Below are positions 1 through 15,628 of a DNA stretch of 16,004 bases, piece after piece (the stretch's first letter is position 1; every line of letters begins with the position of its first letter). Both the position numbers and the translations under genes were made by a program. Under the pieces are notes generated by a model. It was given only the letters and a program-made list of their open reading frames with translations. It made no database searches and was not told the DNA's origin. Source of the DNA: a virus (taxonomy: Duplodnaviria > Heunggongvirae > Uroviricota > Caudoviricetes); the IMG/VR virus record IMGVR_UViG_2579778633_000006. The stretch is one strand, 5' to 3'.

Positions 1-474
1 ATGTACAGTCCGGTACAAATAGCCAATAAATTCATAACGTTGGGAAACCAACATCATAATCCTCTGACCCACATGCAACTGCAGAAGCTTACTTATATTG
101 CCCATGGTTACTATTTAGCATTAACAGGTAAGCCTTTGCTCAATGAATGTGTCTCCGCGTGGAAGTACGGTCCAGTTATTCCTGGAATGTACGATGCTTT
201 CAAAGACTATGGGAATAAACCTGTTACGAATGTAGCAGTAGCTCCTTTTGGTGGCATCGTTACTATGGATCCGCAAGCAGAGAGCATTATCGGGGCTGTT
301 TATAAGTTTTACGGCTCGAAAAATGGAATTGAGTTATCAACTCTAACTCATATGCCAGGTACGCCTTGGTCACAAGCTTATAATGGTATTGGCTCGTCGA
401 TCATCTCAAATGATGCGATCAAGGCTTATTATCATGATTTATTGAATAACCGACAGCAATGTCAGGGCCTCTGA
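1..474 (+). CDS. Panacea-domain (DUF4065, SocA/GepA-like) protein; putative antitoxin-type component
   Basis: 157-aa ORF starting at ATG at position 1. Motifs recalled from DUF4065 proteins: LQKLTYIAHGYYLA, AWKYGPV, THMPGTPW. Followed after a 22-nt gap by a co-oriented ORF. Confidence 0.65.
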   Translation: MYSPVQIANKFITLGNQHHNPLTHMQLQKLTYIAHGYYLALTGKPLLNECVSAWKYGPVIPGMYDAFKDYGNKPVTNVAVAPFGGIVTMDPQAESIIGAVYKFYGSKNGIELSTLTHMPGTPWSQAYNGIGSSIISNDAIKAYYHDLLNNRQQCQGL

Positions 475-496: not shown

Positions 497-1045
497 ATGT
501 CTCATAATTCAGATATCTATAAACTGATCGGAGCGGCCGCAGGTGTTGAAAATGGTCGCTCTGAAGCATCCTTAAACTCTACTGACAGTCAAGAGCAGGC
601 TTTTGAATCCGCATTTGAGCCGTCTAATCATGAACGCGATGATGATTCTTCTTCAGAAAATAAGGCTATTCTGGAGGAAGAAGAGTTTGGTTCTAATACT
701 GGTGCATTGCATGAGTTTATGCAGCAGAACAGAATGGACAGTCTTCAAGCTCAGCTTGATATGCTCAAATCACAAGTACGGGATAAGATAGCTGACGCAA
801 CTGGTAAAGAAATAGACAATGAGCTCCGGACAAAAATGGCATCATTCACGGTTTGGTTTATGTCGTGTTGGTGCTTATTCGTTGTCGCAATGTTTACATC
901 GTTTCTTATTGCACATGAAGGAAAGGCTCCAGTTGAAGCGATCGTTGCATTACTAGGTACAAGTACAATTAGTATTGTTGGTTTGGTTGGTTTCGTTGTT
1001 AGTGGATTGTTCAAATCAAGAAAAGATAGTGATAAAGAAAAATAA
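497..1045 (+). CDS. Hypothetical small membrane protein (acidic N-terminal region, two C-terminal TM helices); candidate toxin partner of the upstream Panacea protein
   Basis: 182-aa ORF with AGGGA 6 nt upstream of ATG. C-terminal hydrophobic stretches FTVWFMSCWCLFVVAMFTSFLI and AIVALLGTSTISIVGLVGFVVSGLF. Ends at a hairpin terminator. Confidence 0.5.
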   Translation: MSHNSDIYKLIGAAAGVENGRSEASLNSTDSQEQAFESAFEPSNHERDDDSSSENKAILEEEEFGSNTGALHEFMQQNRMDSLQAQLDMLKSQVRDKIADATGKEIDNELRTKMASFTVWFMSCWCLFVVAMFTSFLIAHEGKAPVEAIVALLGTSTISIVGLVGFVVSGLFKSRKDSDKEK

Positions 1046-1078: not shown

Positions 1079-1348
1079 TTAGTTATATTTTTTTTCCGTT
1101 CTGACTTTTTCCCACTCAGCTCGCCCTTCTTCCCGTCTTTTGTCAATATATTCCGCAAGATCCTGAATGTTGATGCAGCGTTTTGCTTTTTGTGATGTAC
1201 CGATGCGATATGTAGGTACAGGCAACTTACAAGCGTTTGCTTTTGCTTCTGCTGTGGCTGGACTCATACCAAAGTATTTTTGACTAACTGCTGAGAGTTC
1301 AATGTTTGGGGTATTGAATTCAGCCATCAGTAAAAACAAGGTATTCAT
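1079..1348 (-). CDS. PrtN-family (pyocin activator-like) small DNA-binding protein
   Basis: 89-aa ORF; N-terminus MNTLFLLMAEF and central LPVPTYRIG...SQKAKRCINIQDLAEYID resemble PrtN-family proteins as I recall them. GGAGA RBS about 8 nt upstream of ATG (minus strand). Confidence 0.5.
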   Translation of the reverse strand: MNTLFLLMAEFNTPNIELSAVSQKYFGMSPATAEAKANACKLPVPTYRIGTSQKAKRCINIQDLAEYIDKRREEGRAEWEKVRTEKKYN

Positions 1349-1384
1349 ATCATTTCTCCATCATAACCGGCTGCACCCGGTGAG

Positions 1385-2221
1385 TTACTTATTCATTTCA
1401 ATAATATTATTTTCTATCATTGATTTATTTAAAACCAAAGAAGGAGCAAGATGGTTGTCTATTTTAAACAATGCATAACTTTTAAACTGTTGGTGATATC
1501 CGTAACTAATAAGGATGCTAGAAAAATCTCTTAATTCATCTTCTTTTAAAAAATTAAAATGAAATGGGTTGTCACCATTTATGAACAATGAAACATCTAT
1601 TATGCAGTATTTCTCTCTGTTGTCATTTGCATAGAAAAAAATATAAGACATTCTGTTTGTTAAGACAATGCCATTAAATTTTCTTATGTCTGTAGCTATT
1701 TTGTTTTCCATGTTTGGTGCCACATATTTATTTTCAGAAATACATTTAATTTCATCTCCAGATGTCGTGATTATATAAAAATGAAACTTATCATAAATAT
1801 CTAACTTAACTACGCCATCATTATTATAAAGGCTGCTAAATTTTGGTGGTTCAACTTTTAAAGAATCATAGTTCTTTAAAAGAAGAGGGGAGTCAAATTT
1901 AATAACTTGTAGTATCCCTTTACCTTCAACCTCCATATTGATTGAAGATATAGCAATTGCATTATCTCTTTTATTATTCAGGATTATGGTTGATATATGC
2001 ATGTCATATATTCTACTTGCATTTGCTGAATACGACACTGTCACCTTTTTTGATATTTTTTGCACGCCAAAATATATAGTGAAGGCAGCGGCAAGAATAG
2101 ATAAGAATTTAATGTCAAATAAGGACCATAGCCACATTAGTTGCTCAATTGCTTCAGAGTTAATCATTTGCTTTACCATTATCGCTGTAATACAACACAT
2201 GTGTATATATACGCAATGCAA
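1385..2221 (-). CDS. Hypothetical protein, AT-rich, with N-terminal TM helix; start codon uncertain (alternative ATGs at 2179 and 2167)
   Basis: 278-aa ORF in markedly AT-rich DNA; hydrophobic segment FLSILAAAFTIYFGV near N-terminus; no motif I can assign. Confidence 0.45.
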   Translation of the reverse strand: MHCVYIHMCCITAIMVKQMINSEAIEQLMWLWSLFDIKFLSILAAAFTIYFGVQKISKKVTVSYSANASRIYDMHISTIILNNKRDNAIAISSINMEVEGKGILQVIKFDSPLLLKNYDSLKVEPPKFSSLYNNDGVVKLDIYDKFHFYIITTSGDEIKCISENKYVAPNMENKIATDIRKFNGIVLTNRMSYIFFYANDNREKYCIIDVSLFINGDNPFHFNFLKEDELRDFSSILISYGYHQQFKSYALFKIDNHLAPSLVLNKSMIENNIIEMNK

Positions 2222-2353
2222 TTATTTTGCAAGTGCTTCATTTACTATCAATAGCTTCGTCACGTTATTGTTTAATGGTTCTTTATAGGGGCGGCAATAG
2301 TTAAAATTATCGCTTCCGTAAACGCCCCCGCAGGGGCATTTGCAGTAATGAAA

Positions 2354-4272: not shown

Positions 4273-4947
4273 TTAGGCCTTTATTTTGTATCTTCTTGGT
4301 TTTCCTGAGAAAATCACTGTACCAATTATAGAGCAATTACCGTTGATCTTAATGTAAGGTTCAGGCCAGTTTGGGTTTAATGCTTTGAGGTAACGCTGTG
4401 TTCCATCTTCTATCAACCGCTTGAAGGTGGTTTCGCCTGTATCGTGCATCAATGCAATAACGTCGTCACCGTGGCAGGCAGGGACTTCAGGATCAACAAA
4501 AATCATGTCTCCCGGGCGGTACTCATCAATCATTGAATCACCAATCACCCGCAAGATATAAGTCATTTCGCCACAGGGTACAGGGCAGGGATAAGTTTCT
4601 GCTGTGCTCAAATCAACCTCAGAATAGCCAACTTCTTTCCATGCTCCGGCCTGTACCCATGATATGACAGGGACTAACGTTATTTGTTTGTTAGTGATTG
4701 AAACGTCAGGTTTTTTTGTGATGTTCGTTGTCTGGTGTTCTTGATCAAGCCATCCGACAGGCAGGTCGAAACATTTTTCGATGTGCCGTGCCATGCTGTC
4801 ACCGATATTTTTAGTTGCACCATCTCCCATAAACCTGCTGGTCTGGGTTGGCTCGCGATCAATCATGGTGGCAAAGGAAGAATTCCCGCCAACACCATCT
4901 CTCAGTTTTCTGGCGTTAGACCGCCGGATGTCATGGACTGTTTTCAT
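4273..4947 (-). CDS. CI-type phage repressor (N-terminal HTH, C-terminal LexA-like S24 peptidase domain)
   Basis: 224-aa ORF; C-terminal VIGDSM (Ser nucleophile context) and downstream FKRL (Lys) typical of autocleaving CI/LexA-family repressors; divergent from a Cro-like gene. Confidence 0.85.
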   Translation of the reverse strand: MKTVHDIRRSNARKLRDGVGGNSSFATMIDREPTQTSRFMGDGATKNIGDSMARHIEKCFDLPVGWLDQEHQTTNITKKPDVSITNKQITLVPVISWVQAGAWKEVGYSEVDLSTAETYPCPVPCGEMTYILRVIGDSMIDEYRPGDMIFVDPEVPACHGDDVIALMHDTGETTFKRLIEDGTQRYLKALNPNWPEPYIKINGNCSIIGTVIFSGKPRRYKIKA

Positions 4948-4963
4948 AAAGAAATTAAAACCT

Positions 4964-5032
4964 TTGTACCGATAAGGTACAAGTATCTTGAAGGTTCATC
5001 TCAATCATGTAATATGTATACCGGAGGTACAT
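4964..5032. promoter_or_regulatory. Immunity switch region: two 7-5-7 operator-like palindromes plus candidate rightward promoter
   Basis: TTGTACC-gataa-GGTACAA (4964-4982) and ATGTATA-ccgga-GGTACAT (5014-5032); candidate -35 TTGAAG (4988-4993) and -10 TAATAT (5010-5015) with 16-nt spacing; the second palindrome overlaps the -10 and the cro RBS. Confidence 0.45.
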
Positions 5033-5037
5033 ATTGT

Positions 5038-5238
5038 ATGAAAGCGTATTGGGACTCTTTAACCAAAGAACAGCAGGGTGAGTTGGCCGGAAAAGTTGGC
5101 TCAACACCAGGCTACTTACGGCTGGTTTTCAATGGTTATAAAAAAGCCAGTTTTGTGCTGGCTAAAAAACTTGAGCAATGCACGTCAGGTGCAATTACGA
5201 AATCTGACTTAAGACCGGATATCTATCCGAAAGATTAA
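5038..5238 (+). CDS. Cro-like small HTH regulator
   Basis: 66-aa reading frame starting at ATG 5038 with GGAGG 10 nt upstream; the longer ORF 4735-5238 is antisense to the repressor gene upstream of this ATG. Divergent from the CI-type repressor. Confidence 0.55.
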   Translation: MKAYWDSLTKEQQGELAGKVGSTPGYLRLVFNGYKKASFVLAKKLEQCTSGAITKSDLRPDIYPKD

Positions 5239-5269
5239 CAGAACACCTTCAATTTTTAACCACAGAACG

Positions 5270-5833
5270 ATGAGGCTAACCGTGGGTAAGCATCACTGGA
5301 AAGTAGAAAAACAGCCTGAGTGGTACGTGAAAGCTGTCAGAAAAACTATCGCGGCGTTGCCGGGGGGTTACGCTGAAGCTGCTGAGTGGCTGGATGTAAC
5401 AGAGAACGCTTTATTCAACCGCCTTCGTGCAGATGGCGATCAGATTTTCCCGCTGGGATGGGCAATGATTTTACAGCGCGCGGCTGGCACTCACTACATT
5501 GCGGATGCTGTCGCACAGTCTGCTGGTGGGGTGTTTGTATCGCTTCCTGAAATTGAGGAAGTAGAGAACGCCGATATAAACCAGCGCCTGCTGGAAGTCA
5601 TCGAACAGATCGGGAGTTACTCAAAGCAGATTCGTTCGGCAATCGAAGATGGGGTAGTGGAGCCACACGAGCAGACAGCAATTAATGATGAGTTGTATCT
5701 GTCAATTTCGAAGCTCCAGGAGCATGCAGCACTGGTCTACAAAATCTTTTGCGCTCCAGAAAAGAGTGACGCCCGCGAGTGTGCAGCTCCGGGCGTCGTG
5801 GCGTTTTGTGTCTGTGGAGAAACTAACGCATGA
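5270..5833 (+). CDS. Hypothetical early-operon protein in the CII-like position (possible regulator); start may be GTG at 5282
   Basis: 187-aa ORF directly after cro-like gene; stop overlaps next start (ATGA at 5830-5833). Function not recognisable by eye. Confidence 0.45.
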   Translation: MRLTVGKHHWKVEKQPEWYVKAVRKTIAALPGGYAEAAEWLDVTENALFNRLRADGDQIFPLGWAMILQRAAGTHYIADAVAQSAGGVFVSLPEIEEVENADINQRLLEVIEQIGSYSKQIRSAIEDGVVEPHEQTAINDELYLSISKLQEHAALVYKIFCAPEKSDARECAAPGVVAFCVCGETNA

Positions 5834-6666
5834 ACAGTTTAACGGCAAATAACCGTTTGTCGCAACAGCTGGTGGTCAGTGTCGCTGAACACCTGTTGTT
5901 ACGGCATGAATGCAGATTACCAAATCACCTGGCTGTAAGTAACCACAGAGAACTTTACCTGACTGTGGGGGGCGAGTTGTGCAGGAACTTAACCGCTGGT
6001 TTCGTGACGGAAGAGGGCTTTATGTCCATGTTATTCGTTGGGAGCCAGAAACACAGCGCGTTATCTATCTTCGCAAAGACTACCCGCATGAGTGCTTTAG
6101 TCCTTTGTGGAAATTCAGGCGTGATTTTGTTGAGTGTGAAGGACCACCAGCACATTGATTCTGCCATTCCGGGACGTTACACTGTTCAGGCACCTTATAA
6201 AGCGGGTGCCGGGATTGGCGTCCTGGAAATGTTATCGGCGATATATGACGCGCCAGCGTCTTTTTTATCGTCTGCGTCTGTGCACACCCAAATTATGGTG
6301 GGCTGGACGGGGGCACCGAAAGGTGCGCCGGTTTCCGATAACGCCGGTTACGCCAACCCCGTTCAGTTCACCACCAGCGAAATTGGCGTTTCCGGTGGTG
6401 AAGGTAATTCACTGTTATCGGAGGCTGCCATCATGGCTACTGTCCCAGCCCTCACTCGTCTGAATGATGAAGACTTACATAAACTCAGTTATGTAACAAC
6501 TGCACTACGTGCTCTGCGCAAGGTAACTCTTTCGGATCCGCAGGCGCATCAAGTTCTGGTAGAAACCCTTCTTAACTTGCAGGCTGAACGTATTCGTCTG
6601 GCGGATAAGGCTAATTTTCATATTCACCGTCTCCTGAATATCAGCGGAGGGCATCGTCATGCTTAA
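5830..6666 (+). CDS. Hypothetical protein (278 aa)
   Basis: Translationally coupled at both ends (ATGA overlap at 5830; ATG 6659 overlaps stop 6664-6666, AGCGGAGGG RBS); E. coli-like codon usage. No recognisable motif. Confidence 0.45.
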   Translation: MNSLTANNRLSQQLVVSVAEHLLLRHECRLPNHLAVSNHRELYLTVGGELCRNLTAGFVTEEGFMSMLFVGSQKHSALSIFAKTTRMSALVLCGNSGVILLSVKDHQHIDSAIPGRYTVQAPYKAGAGIGVLEMLSAIYDAPASFLSSASVHTQIMVGWTGAPKGAPVSDNAGYANPVQFTTSEIGVSGGEGNSLLSEAAIMATVPALTRLNDEDLHKLSYVTTALRALRKVTLSDPQAHQVLVETLLNLQAERIRLADKANFHIHRLLNISGGHRHA

Positions 6667-7710: not shown

Positions 7711-8141
7711 TCATGAGTCTTTTGAATGAAGTTCAGAAATACATTGAAGCCCATCCGGGGTGTACTTCCGGAGACATTGCGGATGCTTTTGCAGGTTACT
7801 CACGGCAGCGCGTTCTGCAGTCAGCAAGCAAGTTACGTCAGAGTGGTCGTGTGGCTCACCGTTGTGAAGGGGATACACGCAGACATTTCCCGCGCCTGAC
7901 TGAGAGAGCGCAGGAGGCGGAACCGCAACCAGTTCGTGAAACCAGACCTGTGCGCAATTTCTATGTCGGCACTAACGATCCCCGGGTGATTTTGTGCCTG
8001 ACCCGCCAGGCGGAAGAACTGGAGTCGAGGGGCTTATACCGTCGTGCTGCAACGGTGTGGATGGCGGCATTCCGTGAAAGCCACTCCCAGCCAGAGCGAA
8101 ACAATTTTCTTGCGCGTCGTGAAGGCCGCAAAAACGTCTGA
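7707..8141 (+). CDS. PerC-family-like transcriptional regulator (C-terminal GLYRRAATVW motif), N-terminal winged-helix-like extension
   Basis: 144-aa ORF with ATGA overlap to upstream gene; C-terminal LESRGLYRRAATVWMAAF resembles the LE..GLWRRAA.RW signature I recall for PerC/Pch proteins. Confidence 0.45.
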   Translation: MIMSLLNEVQKYIEAHPGCTSGDIADAFAGYSRQRVLQSASKLRQSGRVAHRCEGDTRRHFPRLTERAQEAEPQPVRETRPVRNFYVGTNDPRVILCLTRQAEELESRGLYRRAATVWMAAFRESHSQPERNNFLARREGRKNV

Positions 8142-10536
8142 GACGAATGCGGATAACAGCGCACAGGCGGCAGCGGCCTCACAAACTGCATCGGCAAACT
8201 CCGCGACAGCAGCCAAAAAATCAGAAACCAACGCGAAAAATAGCGAGGCAGCAGCAAAGAGCAGCGAAACTAATGCTAAATCCAGTGAAACAAACGCGGC
8301 GAAATCTGCAGCGGACGCACTTAATTATCGCAACCAGGCACAATCCGTTGTTGGTAACAATATTGGTCTTGGTGAAGTTGCTATGACCTGCACTGATATC
8401 TCTGTTGAGCCATCAGGTTATATTGGATTTATCAGGATTTACATCTCAGCGAAAGGTTATCCATCAGTAGCGTCTAGTGCCGGGGATAATCTTATTTCTG
8501 GTTATATAGTTAGATCAGAAGTGTCAACAAAAAGATATTCCGGTCTATTTGTTGGTTCAGATACAAAATCATTGTATTCGTACATTTACAGCCAAAGTTC
8601 TGGCCCGCAATGGATACGTCATACCCGCAGAGATGAATTAAGCCGCTTTGGTCAAAATGAATCAACAACTCGTATGTATGGTCCAACTGGTGATCGTTTC
8701 TTTGAAATCCATACTAACGGGAGTTGGGGGGTTTATGATTCTTCTTCTGGACAATGGTCTCCGTTAGGTTTAGCCCAGGGTGGTACTGGTGGAAGAACTA
8801 TCGAGCAAGCACGTGCGAACTTGCGGGTAATGTATGAGCAAAAAGCTGGCCTTGCTAATACTGACCTAAACACCCTTACCGGTGAATATTCTGGTTTCTA
8901 TCAACAACCAACGAGCGCTTACGCAACAGAAGAATTAAATTACCCAATCGGTCTGGCGGGCGCTTTAATAGTGCTCCAAACGAGAGCCAACACTGCTTCT
9001 TCCTGCGTTCAGGTGTACCACCCTTATAATAATCCGGGAATTACTTATAGACGAATATATGAAGGAGGTAGCGGTACCTGGTCTGAATGGAAGAGAGATG
9101 TATCAACAGAAAGGGTTGAAGAGGGAAAAGAAACAACTTACGTATATTCTACGTATTCTTCAGGCGCACCACGCTTACAGGTTTCCAAATCTGGTTTGTG
9201 GGGTTGTCATAATGGCACTGGCTGGTTGCCATTAGCTGTTGGGCAAGGAGGTACAGGTGCGACAACAGTAGAAGATGCGCGAAACAACTTAAGTCTTGGC
9301 GAAAGTAGCGCAGTTAAATTTAAAAACCTTACTTTAACCGAAGCGCTCGACACGACATTAGGACTGCTTACAAAAACAGGACGAGACTGGAACGCTCAGC
9401 ATACTGATAACGTCGACAAATTTAGACCAATTGCAGGCAGTACAAACGGCCCGGCAGGCTCTATGGTTCTTGGCGGCATTCATGTTCAATTTAGTAAAAA
9501 TTATGCTGTGCAGTTCGGAGGCCGCAATTCCGGTTTTTGGGGAAGAACAATTGAAAATGGAACGACGCAGGAATGGAAGAAATTACTAACAGTAGACGAT
9601 CTCAATTCATCTACCGCTCTTGCTGTCAGGTCATTAACCACATCTAACCCGATAAAATCTGGCGGAGGGCGGATTGATGTCCTTGGAAGCACGTCAGACT
9701 ATAGCAAAATGGATTGCTTTGTACGTGGGTTTGATAGCACCGGTAATTCTCTCGCGTGGGCGTTGGGTTCATCAGTCGGCGTAAGTAAGATGCTGTCGCT
9801 AAAAAATTTCTTTAGCGGAGCTGAGATACTGCTAAATGGTAATGACGGCGCGGTTCAACTCAAAACAGGTGCTGTTAACGGTGCTAAAGCGCAGGCGCTC
9901 ACTATCAACAAGGATGAGGTTAACTCAACTGTTGATTTAACTCTTACAAAACAAACAGGGACTGGCAATCGTTTTGTTTTACAGAACTTAGGTAATACAG
10001 AACTACCATTTGCTGTCAAGGTGTGGGGTTCAGGTGATCGACAAAACGTTTTTGAGGTTGGAACGTCTGCCGCGTATCTGTTTTATGCTCAAAAAACATC
10101 GTCAGGTCAGCTGTTTGATGTAAACGGTGCTATTAACTGTACAACACTGAATCAGTTATCAGACCGCGAGCTGAAAGACAATATTCAGATTATCAGTGAC
10201 GCAACCGAAGCTATCCGTAAAATGAACGGGTACACCTACACACTTAAGGAAAACGGACTGCCTTACGCTGGTGTTATTGCACAGGAAGCAATGGAGGCAA
10301 TACCGGAAGCGGTAGGCTCATTCACTCATTACGGTAAAGAGTTGCAGGGACCAACGGTTGACGGCAATGAATTACGTGAAGAAACACGTTATCTGAATGT
10401 TGACTACGCCGCCGTGACGGGCTTACTTGTTCAGGTCGCCCGTGAAACAGATGATCGCGTTACCGCGCTGGAAGAAGAAAACGCAGAATTAAAACAAAGA
10501 TTATCTGCAATTGAGGCGGCGCTTGCCTCTAAATAA
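8125..10536 (+). pseudogene. Tail-fibre gene remnant, 5'-truncated (no start codon in the homologous region), with intact C-terminal intramolecular-chaperone-like domain
   Basis: KTSETNA/KSSETNA repeats as in lambda Stf-type fibres; two GQGGTGA-T-E-AR-NL tail-fibre repeats; C-terminal SDRELKDNI...NGYTY...AELKQRL resembles the autocleaving chaperone domain of fibres/tailspikes. Fibre homology begins in the +1 frame inside the last codons of the PerC-like gene; the only in-frame start upstream is a GTG at 8044 translating unrelated sequence. Confidence 0.6.
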
Positions 10537-10973: not shown

Positions 10974-12350
10974 CTATGATATTCCTGAAATATCCTCTTC
11001 AAGCTCTTTTACTGATTTCGCAATTTTAAATTTAAACTTCCTCTCTATTTCACTATTGCTAAGTTTTTTTTCCTTCTCTTTACCTATCCACATAGAAACA
11101 AGTTCTCGTTTCTGAGATATATGTAGATTGTCAAAGTTAGGTATGTATTTAAAAGTCTCCGCTCTACCTCTGCGGAGTTCATAGAAAGTTTTAATCAAAG
11201 ATTTTGGTTTTATTTCTGATGAAAGGCCGAATCGGCGGATAAGATTATTGATAGTATGATTAACAGAGCGAAGTTGAGCTGTTGAGGTTATTTGTGAGAA
11301 GTACGATACCCATCCCAATCGTTTACCTTCAAACACACATCCCGTAATTCTGAGATTTAGTTTCCACTGACAATATGCAACAGCTCGTTCTTTATCACGC
11401 TTACTTTTAGCTTGTAGTAGAGCGTGCCTATATGCAGTAAAAATTTTTGCTAAGGATGACTCAAATCTAAGAATGCTCTCATGTTTTATCAATAATTCTC
11501 GATTTTCTATGTGGTATCCCAAAAAGTTAAAACTTTCATCCAAACTGCCTACTTTGGATTTTGAGTTCTCTTCATTTAATGGATGTGGGTTTAAATTTAA
11601 TGATTGAAGCTTATCAATGATATGAGAAGCTATTTTTGTTGCTTGATATTTTGGTGTTAAAATAAGAATGTCATCAACGTATCGCATGTACCATATGTCA
11701 TGCATTTTATTGATTTCATCATCGAAATTAGATAGTGATATTTCAGCTAAAATGTTTGATATCGCTAATCCCTGAGGTACTCCTCTGGTATTATTAGGGA
11801 TACCTTTGCTTCCTGTGGTTCCACTTACAGTAGGCACGATTAATGATGATGTTATTAACTGTCTAATTTCTTTTTTTCTAATTTTATTTTTTATTGCATT
11901 AATTATCAATTTATGTTCAATTGAAGGATAGAAACTTTTAAGATCTATTTTTGCATATTCAGCATATAGACTGTTGTTTAATGCTTCTTTCAATGAGTCA
12001 ATTACTGTATGTGGTAGTTTTAATCTGGACTTAGGATATATTTCCGTAAGGCATTCACAGAGAGCTCTAAGAGTAATTCTGTCCCTAGCAGTTGGTATGG
12101 AAATCTGTCTGGGTGTAGAGTTAGCGCCTTTAGATATTAATTTTTCTTTATATGCTGTAAATTTGTAATTGCCAGAATTAACCTTTTCAAAAATGAAAGT
12201 GATCTCATTTTTTATTGTCAAATCAAGTTTTGATGGGCGAATCCGATCTATGCCAATCGCTCCTGATTCTTTGATTTTTTCAGAGTATACTTTTAGAAGA
12301 TTTTTTTTCGAGAATGACTTTTTAAAAATTCTGCTTGCAGTCATAGTCAA
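10974..12350 (-). CDS. Reverse transcriptase (bacterial defence-type RT; retron-like vs UG/Abi-like unresolved), 458 aa with C-terminal extension
   Basis: RT motifs in order: GIDRIRP; RQISIPTARDRITLRAL; IDLKSFYPSIEH; GVPQGLAISNILAEI; YMRYVDDILIL (YxDD catalytic box); FNFLGYHI. AT-rich gene; start overlaps upstream TM-protein gene by ~29 nt. Confidence 0.85.
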   Translation of the reverse strand: MTMTASRIFKKSFSKKNLLKVYSEKIKESGAIGIDRIRPSKLDLTIKNEITFIFEKVNSGNYKFTAYKEKLISKGANSTPRQISIPTARDRITLRALCECLTEIYPKSRLKLPHTVIDSLKEALNNSLYAEYAKIDLKSFYPSIEHKLIINAIKNKIRKKEIRQLITSSLIVPTVSGTTGSKGIPNNTRGVPQGLAISNILAEISLSNFDDEINKMHDIWYMRYVDDILILTPKYQATKIASHIIDKLQSLNLNPHPLNEENSKSKVGSLDESFNFLGYHIENRELLIKHESILRFESSLAKIFTAYRHALLQAKSKRDKERAVAYCQWKLNLRITGCVFEGKRLGWVSYFSQITSTAQLRSVNHTINNLIRRFGLSSEIKPKSLIKTFYELRRGRAETFKYIPNFDNLHISQKRELVSMWIGKEKEKKLSNSEIERKFKFKIAKSVKELEEDISGIS

Positions 12351-12873
12351 TCCAAAGATATATTAATGGGAGTATATAAAGTGCGGCAGTAATAAATATT
12401 CGAAGTAATATCCATAAAATAACAATTATTTTTTCTTTTTGTGTGGGGATCCTCGTCTTAAGTCCAACTTGAGTTACCCTTGAAATTTTATCATCTATGT
12501 CACGGTGATTCTCAACCTCATTGAGCAAATTAAAATATTTTTCTTTCTGTTCAAGAGATAACTGTTGACTGGTGGTAATGTCAAAATAGAGTCGCTGTAG
12601 TGCAATATAATTCCTTCTCATGGCTATTGCTCGACCACGAAAATCTAGGTTAGATACGATCAGAGAAATACCCAGTAGAGCCACTGAAAGTATCGCCGCA
12701 ACGACATCTGTATTATCTCCTAGAACCTTTGGAAATCGCAACGTTACAATTGAAAGTACCGCACTCAATATAGCATACCAAACGAGGATAAATTGAGAGT
12801 GTTTTTCAAGCCATTCTAGTCGATGGTGCGCTTGGATACGTGCTTTATATGTAAACCAAATATTGTCATGCAT
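12322..12873 (-). CDS. Multi-TM small protein, SLATT-like (putative membrane effector of the RT system)
   Basis: 183-aa ORF; AGGA RBS 5-8 nt upstream of ATG 12871-12873; hydrophobic helices FILVWYAILSAVLSIVTL, VVAAILSVALLGISLIVS and C-terminal IIVILWILLRIFITAALYILPLIYLW separated by a charged helical region; 3' end overlaps RT start. Confidence 0.6.
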   Translation of the reverse strand: MHDNIWFTYKARIQAHHRLEWLEKHSQFILVWYAILSAVLSIVTLRFPKVLGDNTDVVAAILSVALLGISLIVSNLDFRGRAIAMRRNYIALQRLYFDITTSQQLSLEQKEKYFNLLNEVENHRDIDDKISRVTQVGLKTRIPTQKEKIIVILWILLRIFITAALYILPLIYLWIDYDCKQNF

Positions 12874-13404: not shown

Positions 13405-14502
13405 TCAAGAGGTCTTATTTCTGCTCCTTTGGAGTTCTTCAAAACGATTATGTAAAGATTTCGGATACAGTTCGGTATATACCTGCCATAGCACGTTTAA
13501 TGAACGATGCCCTGTAACCTGAGCGACTTCCTCAATACTAAAACCAGCCTCAAATAAGCGACTTGCCCCTTCTCTACGCAAATCATGGTATCTCAGATCT
13601 TTAATACCTAATTTGCTTCTTACCCTCTGAAATCCTGCGGTAACAGAAGTGCTGTTATATGGAAAAATGAATTCTGATTTTTTGGGTTGTCGCTGGACGA
13701 TATCCCAGGCTTCCCCAAGCAAGGCAACTTTCATATGGTTGCCTTCCTTTTTACGTGGATCTTTCCTGTCTCTTACTAGTATAGATTTTTGTTCCTGGTC
13801 GAGATCTTCCCATCGTAACCGGCATACTTCTCCGATTCGCATACAGGACCACACAGAAAATTTGAGGATATCAACGAACGGAATTTTTGAGCATTTATGA
13901 GTAGATCGTTGTTGAAGGCCTTCAATGAGCATGTTCAGTTCATCAGATGCTGGTCTACGATTACGACGGTTTGATTTACCAATCAAACCGAGTTTAAGTA
14001 GATATGGACGAGCGCTTTTCGCCGGGTTTGATGTGTAATTGATTCCGTATACAGGTTTTGCCGCATCCAGAACACTGCCAAGATAACTAACATCGTGGCT
14101 GACTGTTGCTGGGCCTGCACCAGCGTTGTTTCTTAGCCTGCAATGTTCAATTACGTCATTTTCTGTCAGTTCAGATAGTTTGATCGCGGAGATGTCACTA
14201 TCCATAAGCAGTTCCAGCACATATCTTTTAGTACGGCCTGCTTTACCTCCGGCATTTGGGTCATTTAAATATTTGTGTAGTAAGTCACGGACTGTAAGTC
14301 CGTCAACAGCATTTGATGATGGAATGCCATATAGATCTAATTCCATCACTTTCTGTGCGCCCCATGTTTTGGCATGAGCATGTTTAGGGAATGTTTTGCT
14401 TTCCCTGTAAGTGATAACACCTTTTTCTTTGATAATCACATTACAGCGATAGCGTGGTGTGCCATCGGATTTTAGTCGTTTCTCTATGTTATAGTACGCC
14501 AT
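13405..14502 (-). CDS. int: Tyrosine-type site-specific integrase (phage integrase family), adjacent to and divergent from dusA
   Basis: 365-aa ORF; C-terminal catalytic signatures MRIGEVCRLRWEDLD (Arg), YHDLRREGASRL (HxxR), GHRSLNVLWQVYTEL (His/Trp and Tyr). Confidence 0.9.
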   Translation of the reverse strand: MAYYNIEKRLKSDGTPRYRCNVIIKEKGVITYRESKTFPKHAHAKTWGAQKVMELDLYGIPSSNAVDGLTVRDLLHKYLNDPNAGGKAGRTKRYVLELLMDSDISAIKLSELTENDVIEHCRLRNNAGAGPATVSHDVSYLGSVLDAAKPVYGINYTSNPAKSARPYLLKLGLIGKSNRRNRRPASDELNMLIEGLQQRSTHKCSKIPFVDILKFSVWSCMRIGEVCRLRWEDLDQEQKSILVRDRKDPRKKEGNHMKVALLGEAWDIVQRQPKKSEFIFPYNSTSVTAGFQRVRSKLGIKDLRYHDLRREGASRLFEAGFSIEEVAQVTGHRSLNVLWQVYTELYPKSLHNRFEELQRSRNKTS

Positions 14503-14590: not shown

Positions 14591-15628
14591 ATGCACGATA
14601 ATCCTGAAACACAGAAAACTAATCAAACCAGCGTGATGCCTGAAAAAACTGGCGCTTACTGGAGTTCTCGGTTTAGCATTGCTCCTATGCTCGACTGGAC
14701 GGACAGACATTGCCGCTATTTCTTGCGTCTGCTTTCCCGCAATACGTTGCTGTATACCGAAATGGTGACCACAGGGGCGATTATTCACGGTAAAGGTGAT
14801 TACCTGGCGTACAGTGAAGAAGAACATCCGGTAGCGTTGCAACTCGGCGGTAGCGATCCGGCGGCGCTGGCACAGTGTGCGAAGCTGGCAGAAGCGCGTG
14901 GATATGATGAGATCAACCTGAATGTCGGCTGCCCGTCTGACCGGGTGCAGAACGGCATGTTTGGTGCGTGTCTGATGGGTAATGCGCAGCTGGTTGCCGA
15001 CTGCGTGAAAGCGATGCGCGATGTGGTGTCGATTCCAGTGACGGTGAAAACGCGTATTGGCATCGATGACCAGGACAGCTATGAATTTCTCTGCGATTTC
15101 ATCAACACCGTTTCCGGCAAAGGCGAGTGTGAGATGTTTATCATCCACGCACGTAAAGCCTGGCTTTCGGGGTTAAGCCCGAAAGAAAACCGTGAAATCC
15201 CGCCGCTCGATTATCCGCGTGTGTATCAACTGAAGCGTGACTTTCCGCATCTGACAATGTCGATTAACGGTGGTATCAAGTCGCTGGAAGAGGCCAAAGC
15301 ACACCTGCAACATATGGATGGCGTGATGGTCGGGCGCGAGGCGTATCAGAATCCGGGTATTCTGGCGGCGGTAGACCGGGAGATCTTTGGTTCCTCGGAT
15401 ACCGATGCCGATCCAGTGGCGGTAGTGCGCGCCATGTATCCGTACATTGAGCGTGAACTCAGCCAGGGGACGTATCTCGGCCATATTACCCGGCATATGT
15501 TGGGCTTGTTCCAGGGTATTCCTGGCGCGCGGCAGTGGCGGCGTTATTTAAGTGAAAATGCCCATAAAGCGGGTGCAGACATTAATGTGCTGGAACACGC
15601 GCTCAAACTGGTGGCGGATAAGCGTTAA
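14591..15628 (+). CDS. dusA: tRNA-dihydrouridine synthase A
   Basis: 345-aa ORF with conserved Dus-family sequence ([30 protein letters not shown], catalytic Cys region); followed by pspG as in E. coli. The 5' end may be element-derived; true start may lie downstream of 14591. Confidence 0.9.

Follow-up and report, generated by a model that had tools for sequence, protein, structure and literature searches.

The stretch analysed here, which we call the window, comprises 16,004 nucleotides (nt) of DNA from a virus (Caudoviricetes; IMG/VR record IMGVR_UViG_2579778633_000006). The window matches Escherichia coli chromosomes at 100% identity, and the host element is a defective lambdoid, CPS-53-like E. 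coli prophage integrated at dusA. Our subject is a single gene of this prophage, hereafter the cargo gene. An earlier reading of the letters alone (the original prediction) had placed an AT-rich orphan gene of 278 amino acids (aa) at 1385–2221, and suggested that it was a separately acquired moron possibly involved in defence or superinfection exclusion. In the program-made list of open reading frames (ORFs), a minus-strand ORF with a TTG start and a length of 278 aa was indeed present at exactly these coordinates; the original prediction had named no strand. This length applies to the longest ORF and not to the protein, as the biologically supported start gives 260 aa. The two parts of the ORF are as follows.

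1385–2167, minus strand: cargo gene, almost certain coding sequence (CDS), 260 aa, phrog_14996; based on the ORF list, the Prokaryotic Genome Annotation Pipeline (PGAP), the start in homologues and the ratio of nonsynonymous to synonymous substitution rates (dN/dS)
2168–2221, minus strand: 5' extension of the longest ORF, from the TTG at 2221; absent in homologues, with the PGAP start at 2167

In the RefSeq/PGAP annotation of strain O78 of avian pathogenic E. coli (APEC), the gene starts at 2167 and its product (WP_000610754.1, 'hypothetical protein') has the N-terminus MINSEAIEQ. The residues M-[ILY]-N were common to the N-termini of all aligned homologues, and none of these proteins carried an extension like the 18 residues at the 5' end of the longest ORF. 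Because RefSeq/PGAP uses the ATG at 2167 and the homologues share the same start, we took this codon as the start. Judging from these alignments, the true CDS is almost certainly 1385–2167 on the minus strand (260 aa and a stop codon), and the segment 2168–2221 would probably be untranslated leader or promoter DNA that lies outside the protein. An ORF of 116 aa on the plus strand (1938–2288) overlaps the 5' part of the cargo gene, and was taken as a chance frame in AT-rich DNA.

The base composition of the gene was then compared with that of its surroundings. The GC content of the CDS is 28.7% (33.7, 26.1 and 26.4% at the first, second and third codon positions, respectively) against a window mean of 44.1%. 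A sliding-window calculation supported the claim that the gene is AT-rich and distinct from its flanks; the 783-bp window with the lowest GC content in the whole 16 kb begins at 1381, and 783-bp windows outside the ORF gave a mean of 0.450 with a standard deviation of 0.057 and a minimum of 0.307. The GC content is 26–32% over about 1400–2250 compared to 39–56% in the adjoining 4 kb. The surrounding genes had been estimated by eye at about 50% GC, a value that proved too high for the immediate flanks, which are at 40–46% (PrtN-family gene, 40.0%; yfdQ, 46.1%), with yfdP at 50.7%. The description of an isolated AT-rich gene in an otherwise GC-normal prophage also had to be given up, as a second AT-rich cargo block is present at 10974–12873, consisting of a reverse transcriptase gene (32.6% GC) and a SLATT gene (36.1% GC). 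Close homologues displayed a GC content of 29–33% against 45–53% in their flanks (20 loci). When distant members were included (28 loci in total), the GC content of the homologue was below that of its surroundings at every locus examined, by 4–21 points in the distant members. AT-richness is a trait of the whole family.

We examined the limits of the AT-rich segment by using positions 1000–2500 as a query against E. coli genomes. Approximately 2760 genomes matched the flanks of the query, with matches on the PrtN side ending at about 1380 and those on the yfdQ side beginning at 2304/2305. The cassette delimited by these breaks, of about 920 bp (1381–2304), encloses the cargo gene alone. It was present in exactly 99 of 5426 complete E. 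coli genomes, always full length, as a single copy, on the chromosome and with 95–100% identity, and the gene was disrupted in none of the 99 carriers. In sister dusA prophages (O157:H7, strain E47), the same slot is occupied by 2.4 kb with genes for a 3'-5' exonuclease, a hypothetical protein, a phage protein and YfdR, and the slot in CPS-53 of strain K-12 contains yfdR, yfdS, yfdT and torI. Read from these alignments, the cassette is a replacement of an early-gene block between yfdQ and the excisionase-type gene, and not a simple insertion. The sharp homology breaks, the all-or-none occurrence in 99 of 5426 genomes, the replacement of four early genes of the sister prophages and the low GC content of all homologues agree with the proposal of a separately acquired moron, and we are highly confident that the gene is a real, horizontally exchanged, single-gene mobile cargo cassette. 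E. coli alleles of the cargo gene with 92% identity (dN/dS of 0.42–0.55) are accompanied by upstream YfdQ and YfdP that are 99% identical and by a downstream PrtN that is 94–98% identical. The 92% cargo alleles beside the 99%-identical upstream backbone indicate that the cargo diverges or recombines faster than that backbone. The features that frame the gene are listed here.

1079–1348, minus strand: PrtN-family excisionase-type gene, conserved backbone and downstream neighbour (Pfam PF11112, E=2.8e-23; RefSeq)
1366–1381, minus strand: hairpin-like element ACCGG-GTGCAG-CCGGT, core GGKTGCAGCCGR, at the right-hand boundary between the cargo stop codon (1385) and the Shine-Dalgarno sequence and ATG of xis
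2168–2304, minus strand: cassette-specific upstream non-coding DNA, 137 bp, candidate own promoter, inside the homology break
2324–2337, minus strand: GC-rich hairpin GCCCC-TGCG-GGGGC with a poor T-tract, read from the sequence, just past the yfdQ stop codon
2354–3178, minus strand: yfdQ (DUF2303), early-left operon backbone and upstream neighbour (Pfam PF10065, E=2.4e-92; RefSeq)

The hairpin at 2324–2337, which was not called by the terminator scan, lies within the yfdQ-flank homology of about 2700 genomes and marks the left-hand boundary. The element at 1366–1381 was found once in the window, compared to 0.01 matches expected, and once per locus in 25 related loci, 8–10 nt upstream of the Shine-Dalgarno sequence of a xis-type gene. 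The xis genes that follow it belong to three families (PrtN, Exc PF07825 and a 68-aa type), and the gene that precedes it is either this cargo gene or the 3'-5' exonuclease gene. The loci of lambda and P22 lack the element, which could serve to regulate xis or as a junction for module exchange. The terminator scan detected no intrinsic terminator between the cargo gene and xis. In the upstream DNA, blocks of sequence are partly conserved in an alignment with Citrobacter alleles. A scan for promoter-like sites pointed to TTGATA-16-CAAAAT at 2251–2224 and TATACA-18-GATAAT at 2207–2178, and a further site was read by eye, with TTGCAA at 2232–2227 and TATATA at 2209–2204 separated by 17 nt.

We found that the gene is not an orphan. 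A word-indexed search identified 11 clusters with 40–99% identity in E. coli, Citrobacter and Klebsiella, all of 250–313 aa. An exhaustive profile search against 1.84 billion representatives extended the family to at least 220 clusters (50% identity) with E<=1e-3, 140 of which had E<=1e-10. Nearly all of the 220 clusters are 235–275 aa long and display the same N-terminal hydrophobic segment. The family has one common layout, a membrane segment followed by the globular part, and length-conserved homologues were recognized down to about 20% identity. The window protein matched phrog_14996 of PHROGs v4 (unknown function) with an E-value of 2.9e-176, residues 1–260 aligning with positions 1–260 of the 260-position profile, and 60 of 60 diverse family members also matched this profile. 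In terms of selection, dN/dS (Nei-Gojobori) was 0.20 between the window allele and a metagenomic allele that clusters with the Citrobacter type (61% protein identity), and 0.13 between two Citrobacter-type alleles, dS being at or near saturation for these values. The ratios show the coding sequence to be under purifying selection. Among 185,579 species-representative genomes, a close relative was found in one, a Buttiauxella metagenome-assembled genome, in a search limited to a pattern from the close alignment.

The genes surrounding family members were examined in various lineages. Citrobacter-type alleles are situated directly upstream of a 68-aa gene and an integrase gene. This arrangement closes off at least three different islands, a P4-like satellite and a CbtA/CbeA island among them. 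In three otherwise different islands, the Citrobacter homologue is always preceded by a 477-aa gene without a Pfam or PADLOC match (5015–6448, plus strand, in loci L014–L016). Among IMG/VR prophages, we found the order cargo gene, excisionase gene (PF07825) and lambda-type integrase gene, and in another prophage the order cargo gene, 68-aa gene and integrase gene. A podovirus-like Klebsiella prophage harbours a member in its early operon, on the operon strand, after an MT-A70 methylase gene and followed by a 113-aa ORF at a gap of 1 nt. Two members lie on the opposite strand to their neighbours, one between antiterminator Q and holin in a lambdoid element of 58% GC, and the other between an ANT/Rha antirepressor gene and a DUF4145 gene. 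On a MobA/ArdC element, a member begins 4 nt after a gene for a 1683-aa Type ISP restriction-modification (R-M) protein and precedes a RE_endonuc gene. In one further locus, the member is preceded by hsdS, a 267-aa gene and GmrSD; in another, putAbiC, Bro-N and SHOCT genes lie nearby; in a third, the neighbours are genes of unknown kind. Two small Acinetobacter plasmids also carry members, one of them together with MazEF. A Pfam/PADLOC scan of the neighbours of nine homologues revealed no partner gene shared across lineages. The family is sporadic, mobile, single-gene cargo, often in prophages and sometimes within restriction or abortive-infection gene clusters.

The structure of the protein was predicted with AlphaFold2. 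The model reached a predicted local distance difference test score (pLDDT) of 83 and a predicted template modelling score (pTM) of 0.69 with 12 sequences, and values of 93.2 and 0.81 with 60 sequences. It comprises a helix (residues 4–16), a kink (17–18), a transmembrane (TM) helix (19–38), a beta-sandwich (42–141), a low-confidence loop (147–152), a beta-rich domain with short helices (156–247) and a C-terminal helix (248–259). A single N-terminal hydrophobic helix had been predicted for the gene product, and this corresponds to helix 19–38 of the 260-aa protein and to the Kyte-Doolittle hydropathy maximum, which starts at residue 13. The codons of the predicted parts map to the window as follows.

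2054–2113, minus strand: predicted TM helix, residues 19–38 (AlphaFold2, hydropathy/charge, column entropy)
1745–2044, minus strand: predicted domain 1, residues 42–141, immunoglobulin (Ig)-like beta-sandwich
1388–1702, minus strand: predicted domain 2, residues 156–260, beta-rich with short helices (AlphaFold2, entropy profile)

Column entropy identified the end of the TM helix and the juxtamembrane motif YF[AG]xxKK[IG]xKV (residues 31–41) as conserved, along with two motifs in domain 1, LxNxKD[KN] (residues 63–69) and FxPPLILK (residues 91–98). Variability within the family is greatest in the last 50 residues or so. The conservation of the TM/juxtamembrane segment suggests a specific membrane interaction rather than a passive anchor. 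In 127 full-length members, the mean number of Lys and Arg residues was 2.5 in the 15 residues after the TM helix and 0.6 before it, with the bias present in 87% of the members, and the N-terminal tail is acidic. Basic residues mark the cytoplasmic side of a membrane protein (the positive-inside rule). Taking this rule into account, the bias predicts an N-out/C-in protein whose globular part, of about 220 residues, would be held at the inner membrane on its cytoplasmic side. Four members have an extra N-terminal TM or signal-like segment (with an MKK or MKN start) before the canonical TM helix, which fits this topology. Two other readings of the primary structure were considered. Residues N65-K66-R67-D68 resemble a GTPase NKxD motif; this reading was rejected, as the Lys is at position 67 in the family, a P-loop is missing and the protein folds as a beta-sandwich. 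A conserved disulphide, which would have been a sign of a periplasmic domain, received no support, as only C142 is conserved family-wide.

The remainder of the window provides the context in which the cargo gene is carried. On the minus strand, yfdP, yfdQ, the cargo gene and the PrtN/xis gene are all co-oriented, with the cargo gene 36 nt upstream of xis and yfdP following yfdQ in the gene order of the window. Beyond the repressor gene are cII-like, Ash, replication initiator and PerC genes, and then a tail-fibre fragment and the RT_UG17 and SLATT genes. Three further landmarks are listed below.

4273–4947: LexA/CI-type repressor gene
13405–14502: integrase gene
14591–15628: dusA

Head and terminase genes are absent from the window, and IMG/VR contigs of 34–42 kb share the same left arm. 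The sole structural-gene remnant is an 830-aa ORF (8044–10536, plus strand) with a C-terminal Peptidase_S74 (endosialidase chaperone) domain. Its position directly after the PerC gene points to a large internal deletion of the prophage. Near the integrase gene, a gene for an RT_UG17 reverse transcriptase (10974–12350, minus strand; PADLOC, E=1.2e-158) overlaps a gene for a reverse transcriptase-associated SLATT effector with two TM segments (12322–12873, minus strand; E=1.5e-56), and this pair is a candidate for a DRT-type defence system of the same prophage remnant. At the attL end, a gene with a Panacea/SocA domain (1–474, plus strand; PF13274, E=5.9e-18) is followed 22 nt on by a gene (497–1045, plus strand) for a 182-aa protein with C-terminal hydrophobic helices, matching phrog_13343. 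The two look like a pair of a PanA antitoxin and a PanT-like membrane toxin, and sister prophages carry different Panacea and partner alleles. We also obtained Rfam matches above the gathering score for the Hfq-binding small RNA isrK (6190–6266, plus strand; 63.7 bits) and for C4 antisense RNA (6291–6378, plus strand; 82.8 bits), both inside a 278-aa Ash-family ORF (5830–6666). These matches suggest a C4/antirepressor immunity module of the P1/P7 type, and also that this long ORF may have been called partly in error.

With respect to function, the explanation that we tentatively put forward, giving it a little less than an even chance, is that of a mobile moron cassette whose product protects the lysogen from other phages. 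An anti-phage exclusion or defence role as such is possible to much the same degree or marginally less. In this explanation, the gene would be active in the lysogen; the 137 bp of AT-rich DNA upstream may provide its promoter, and H-NS may modulate its expression. Such modulation is typical of DNA with a GC content below 30% in E. coli. The protein would act from the inner side of the inner membrane on foreign phages that enter or develop in the cell. It might interfere with genome entry or block a membrane-associated phage step. Alternatively, the variable C-terminal domain might sense a phage component, and the conserved, probably self-associating TM/juxtamembrane segment would then act in a manner resembling abortive infection. 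The prophage cargo slots, together with the R-M, GmrSD and AbiC neighbours, are suggestive of defence, and we also count in favour of this role that the same prophage carries the Panacea toxin-antitoxin-like pair and the RT_UG17–SLATT pair. A broader proposal, rather doubtful in our estimate, is that phrog_14996 is an unrecognised, widespread single-gene anti-phage immunity family on prophages, plasmids and defence islands, whose tethered cytoplasmic double beta-domain would sense and whose TM segment would execute. An architecture with a membrane-tethered double beta-domain sensor is unrepresented among catalogued defence systems.

A number of results weigh against protection of the lysogen. 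The cargo gene is co-oriented with the repressor-controlled early-left operon. Because the gene is on the strand of this operon and the promoter-like matches are not above chance (7 found, 6.4 expected in shuffles), we can only infer its expression in the lysogen. Classical injection blockers do not usually have a domain that faces the cytoplasm. The protein displays no signature of catalysis or nucleotide binding, and its fold matched only generic Ig-like structures. Recognised defence genes adjoin the family in only 3 of about 14 independent contexts, and one member lies after the housekeeping genes pilBCD-coaE-zapD-yacG. As the original prediction had it, there is no recognisable motif; searches of Pfam, NCBIfam, PADLOC and the sequences of the PDB gave no family for the window protein or for 60 diverse relatives. 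The sole match of these 60 members to the PADLOC v2.0.0 models was a borderline chance hit (E=0.0099). When a profile built from 60 sequences was compared with known exclusion proteins by hhalign, the probabilities were 0.2% for P22 SieA and 0.4% for lambda SieB. What the protein has in common with SieA and SieB is that it is a predicted inner-membrane protein of a temperate phage, a trait of many unrelated proteins. A tblastn search with the window protein and one distant member (P0162) detected no relative in 50,697 isolated-phage records. WP_000610754.1 and phrog_14996 were found neither in the searched literature nor in the DefensePredictor supplements, and a literature search on dusA, Panacea and defence yielded nothing relevant.

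Among the other explanations, the chance that the ORF is spurious, a random frame in AT-rich non-coding DNA, is practically negligible. The original prediction had raised this possibility, and it could be argued from the TTG start of the longest ORF, the weak Shine-Dalgarno sequence of the window allele and the absence of any family annotation. This reading is refuted by conservation of length in homologues down to about 20% identity, by dN/dS values of 0.13–0.20 with dS saturated, by a confident fold (pLDDT of 93 in AlphaFold2) and by an undisrupted frame in 99 genomes. The main rival, which we regard as unlikely, takes the gene to belong, as an accessory resembling the 'ea' genes, to the early-left programme of the phage itself. 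It would be transcribed after induction or infection from the early promoter that the repressor controls, and its product would act on a host inner-membrane target to the benefit of the phage. Host takeover, inhibition of division or transport, and modulation of the timing of lysis or excision would be examples of such a function. The gene lies inside the early-left operon, on the same strand as yfdP, yfdQ and PrtN/xis and just upstream of xis, and no significant promoter of its own was found. The position directly upstream of xis-int recurs in the Citrobacter elements and the IMG/VR prophages, the Klebsiella prophage member is found in an early operon on the operon strand, and ea genes are found where the cargo gene would lie in lambda and P22. 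On the other hand, members are also present outside phages, namely on the small plasmids, on the mobilisable element within an R-M operon and after GmrSD, and the window allele has been kept intact in a prophage remnant without structural genes. Both observations, the occurrence elsewhere and the survival of the gene after decay of the prophage, speak against a role that is confined to the phage. The opposite orientation to the neighbours in two phages points the same way, as does the lack of homology to P22 EaC and EaA, for both of which the hhalign probability was below 1%.

The presence of a membrane-anchored cargo protein on diverse mobile elements, with MazEF nearby on one plasmid, would also suit a lysogenic-conversion, fitness or addiction factor, such as a protein affecting the envelope or stress physiology, or a membrane toxin by which the element is stabilised. 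The conserved TM/juxtamembrane segment, suggesting as it does a specific membrane interaction, is consistent with such a factor. Against this, no conserved adjacent antitoxin-like gene was seen in any context; surface conversion is difficult to reconcile with a predicted cytoplasmic orientation and with the absence of a signal peptide or lipobox from the protein, and no virulence or fitness family was matched. We consider this explanation clearly unlikely. Some neighbours raise the question of whether the protein is a component of a multi-gene system. The Type ISP R-M gene 4 nt ahead of a distant member, the 113-aa ORF 1 nt behind the Klebsiella member and the 477-aa gene that always precedes the Citrobacter members could each be taken in this sense. 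These neighbours differ by lineage, none of them is found in the window and the boundaries of the E. coli cassette hold one gene only, which makes a multi-gene system very improbable. Protection of the lysogen by a single-gene moron is a plausible reading that we tentatively retain, with the reservations given above.

Should members of the family turn out to protect against phages, the catalogue of defence systems would gain a compact system of one gene that works at the membrane. This would account for the survival of the cassette, undamaged inside a prophage that has decayed, in about 2% of E. coli, among them the sequence types ST131 and ST648 and APEC lineages. Whatever its function, the locus illustrates clean exchange of cargo at conserved junctions (the yfdQ hairpin and the element preceding xis) in the early-left arm of dusA-integrating prophages. 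What had been labelled an orphan ORF is now a defined family with a confident fold, a predicted topology and a delimited unit at 1381–2304. A phage biologist would not be surprised by this finding, which provides a well-defined candidate for a one-gene, membrane-based immunity family.

Comparison with known systems places the gene as follows. Its own family, phrog_14996, is uncharacterised; it is covered by no model of Pfam, NCBIfam or PADLOC, and none of its members has a solved structure. In terms of fold type only, the protein can be compared with TM-anchored beta-sandwich proteins of the Ig-like/LEA_2 type, such as archaeal type IV pilins, FlaF/FlaG and the luminal domain of TMEM106B. Its layout of an N-terminal anchor and one soluble module, encoded by a temperate phage, recalls HK97 gp15, T4 Sp and the lactococcal Sie2009. 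These proteins are smaller (about 80–190 aa) and their soluble part faces outward. The cargo protein, compared with them by description only, differs in having a domain of about 220 aa that is predicted to be cytoplasmic. The ea genes of lambda and P22 (ea8.5 and orf55; eaC and eaA) share its position as the last early-left gene before xis and are likewise non-essential accessory genes, but their products, unlike the cargo protein, are not membrane proteins as annotated. The lambdoid morons (sieB, rexAB, bor and lom of lambda; sieA and sieB of P22) resemble the cargo gene in being AT-rich, polymorphic for presence or absence, single, located between backbone genes and associated with the membrane through their product. 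Unlike the obviously autonomous lambdoid morons, the cargo gene is co-oriented with the early-left operon and its promoter is only a candidate; its relatives, on the other hand, occupy the classic moron slots, between Q and holin and next to xis-int.

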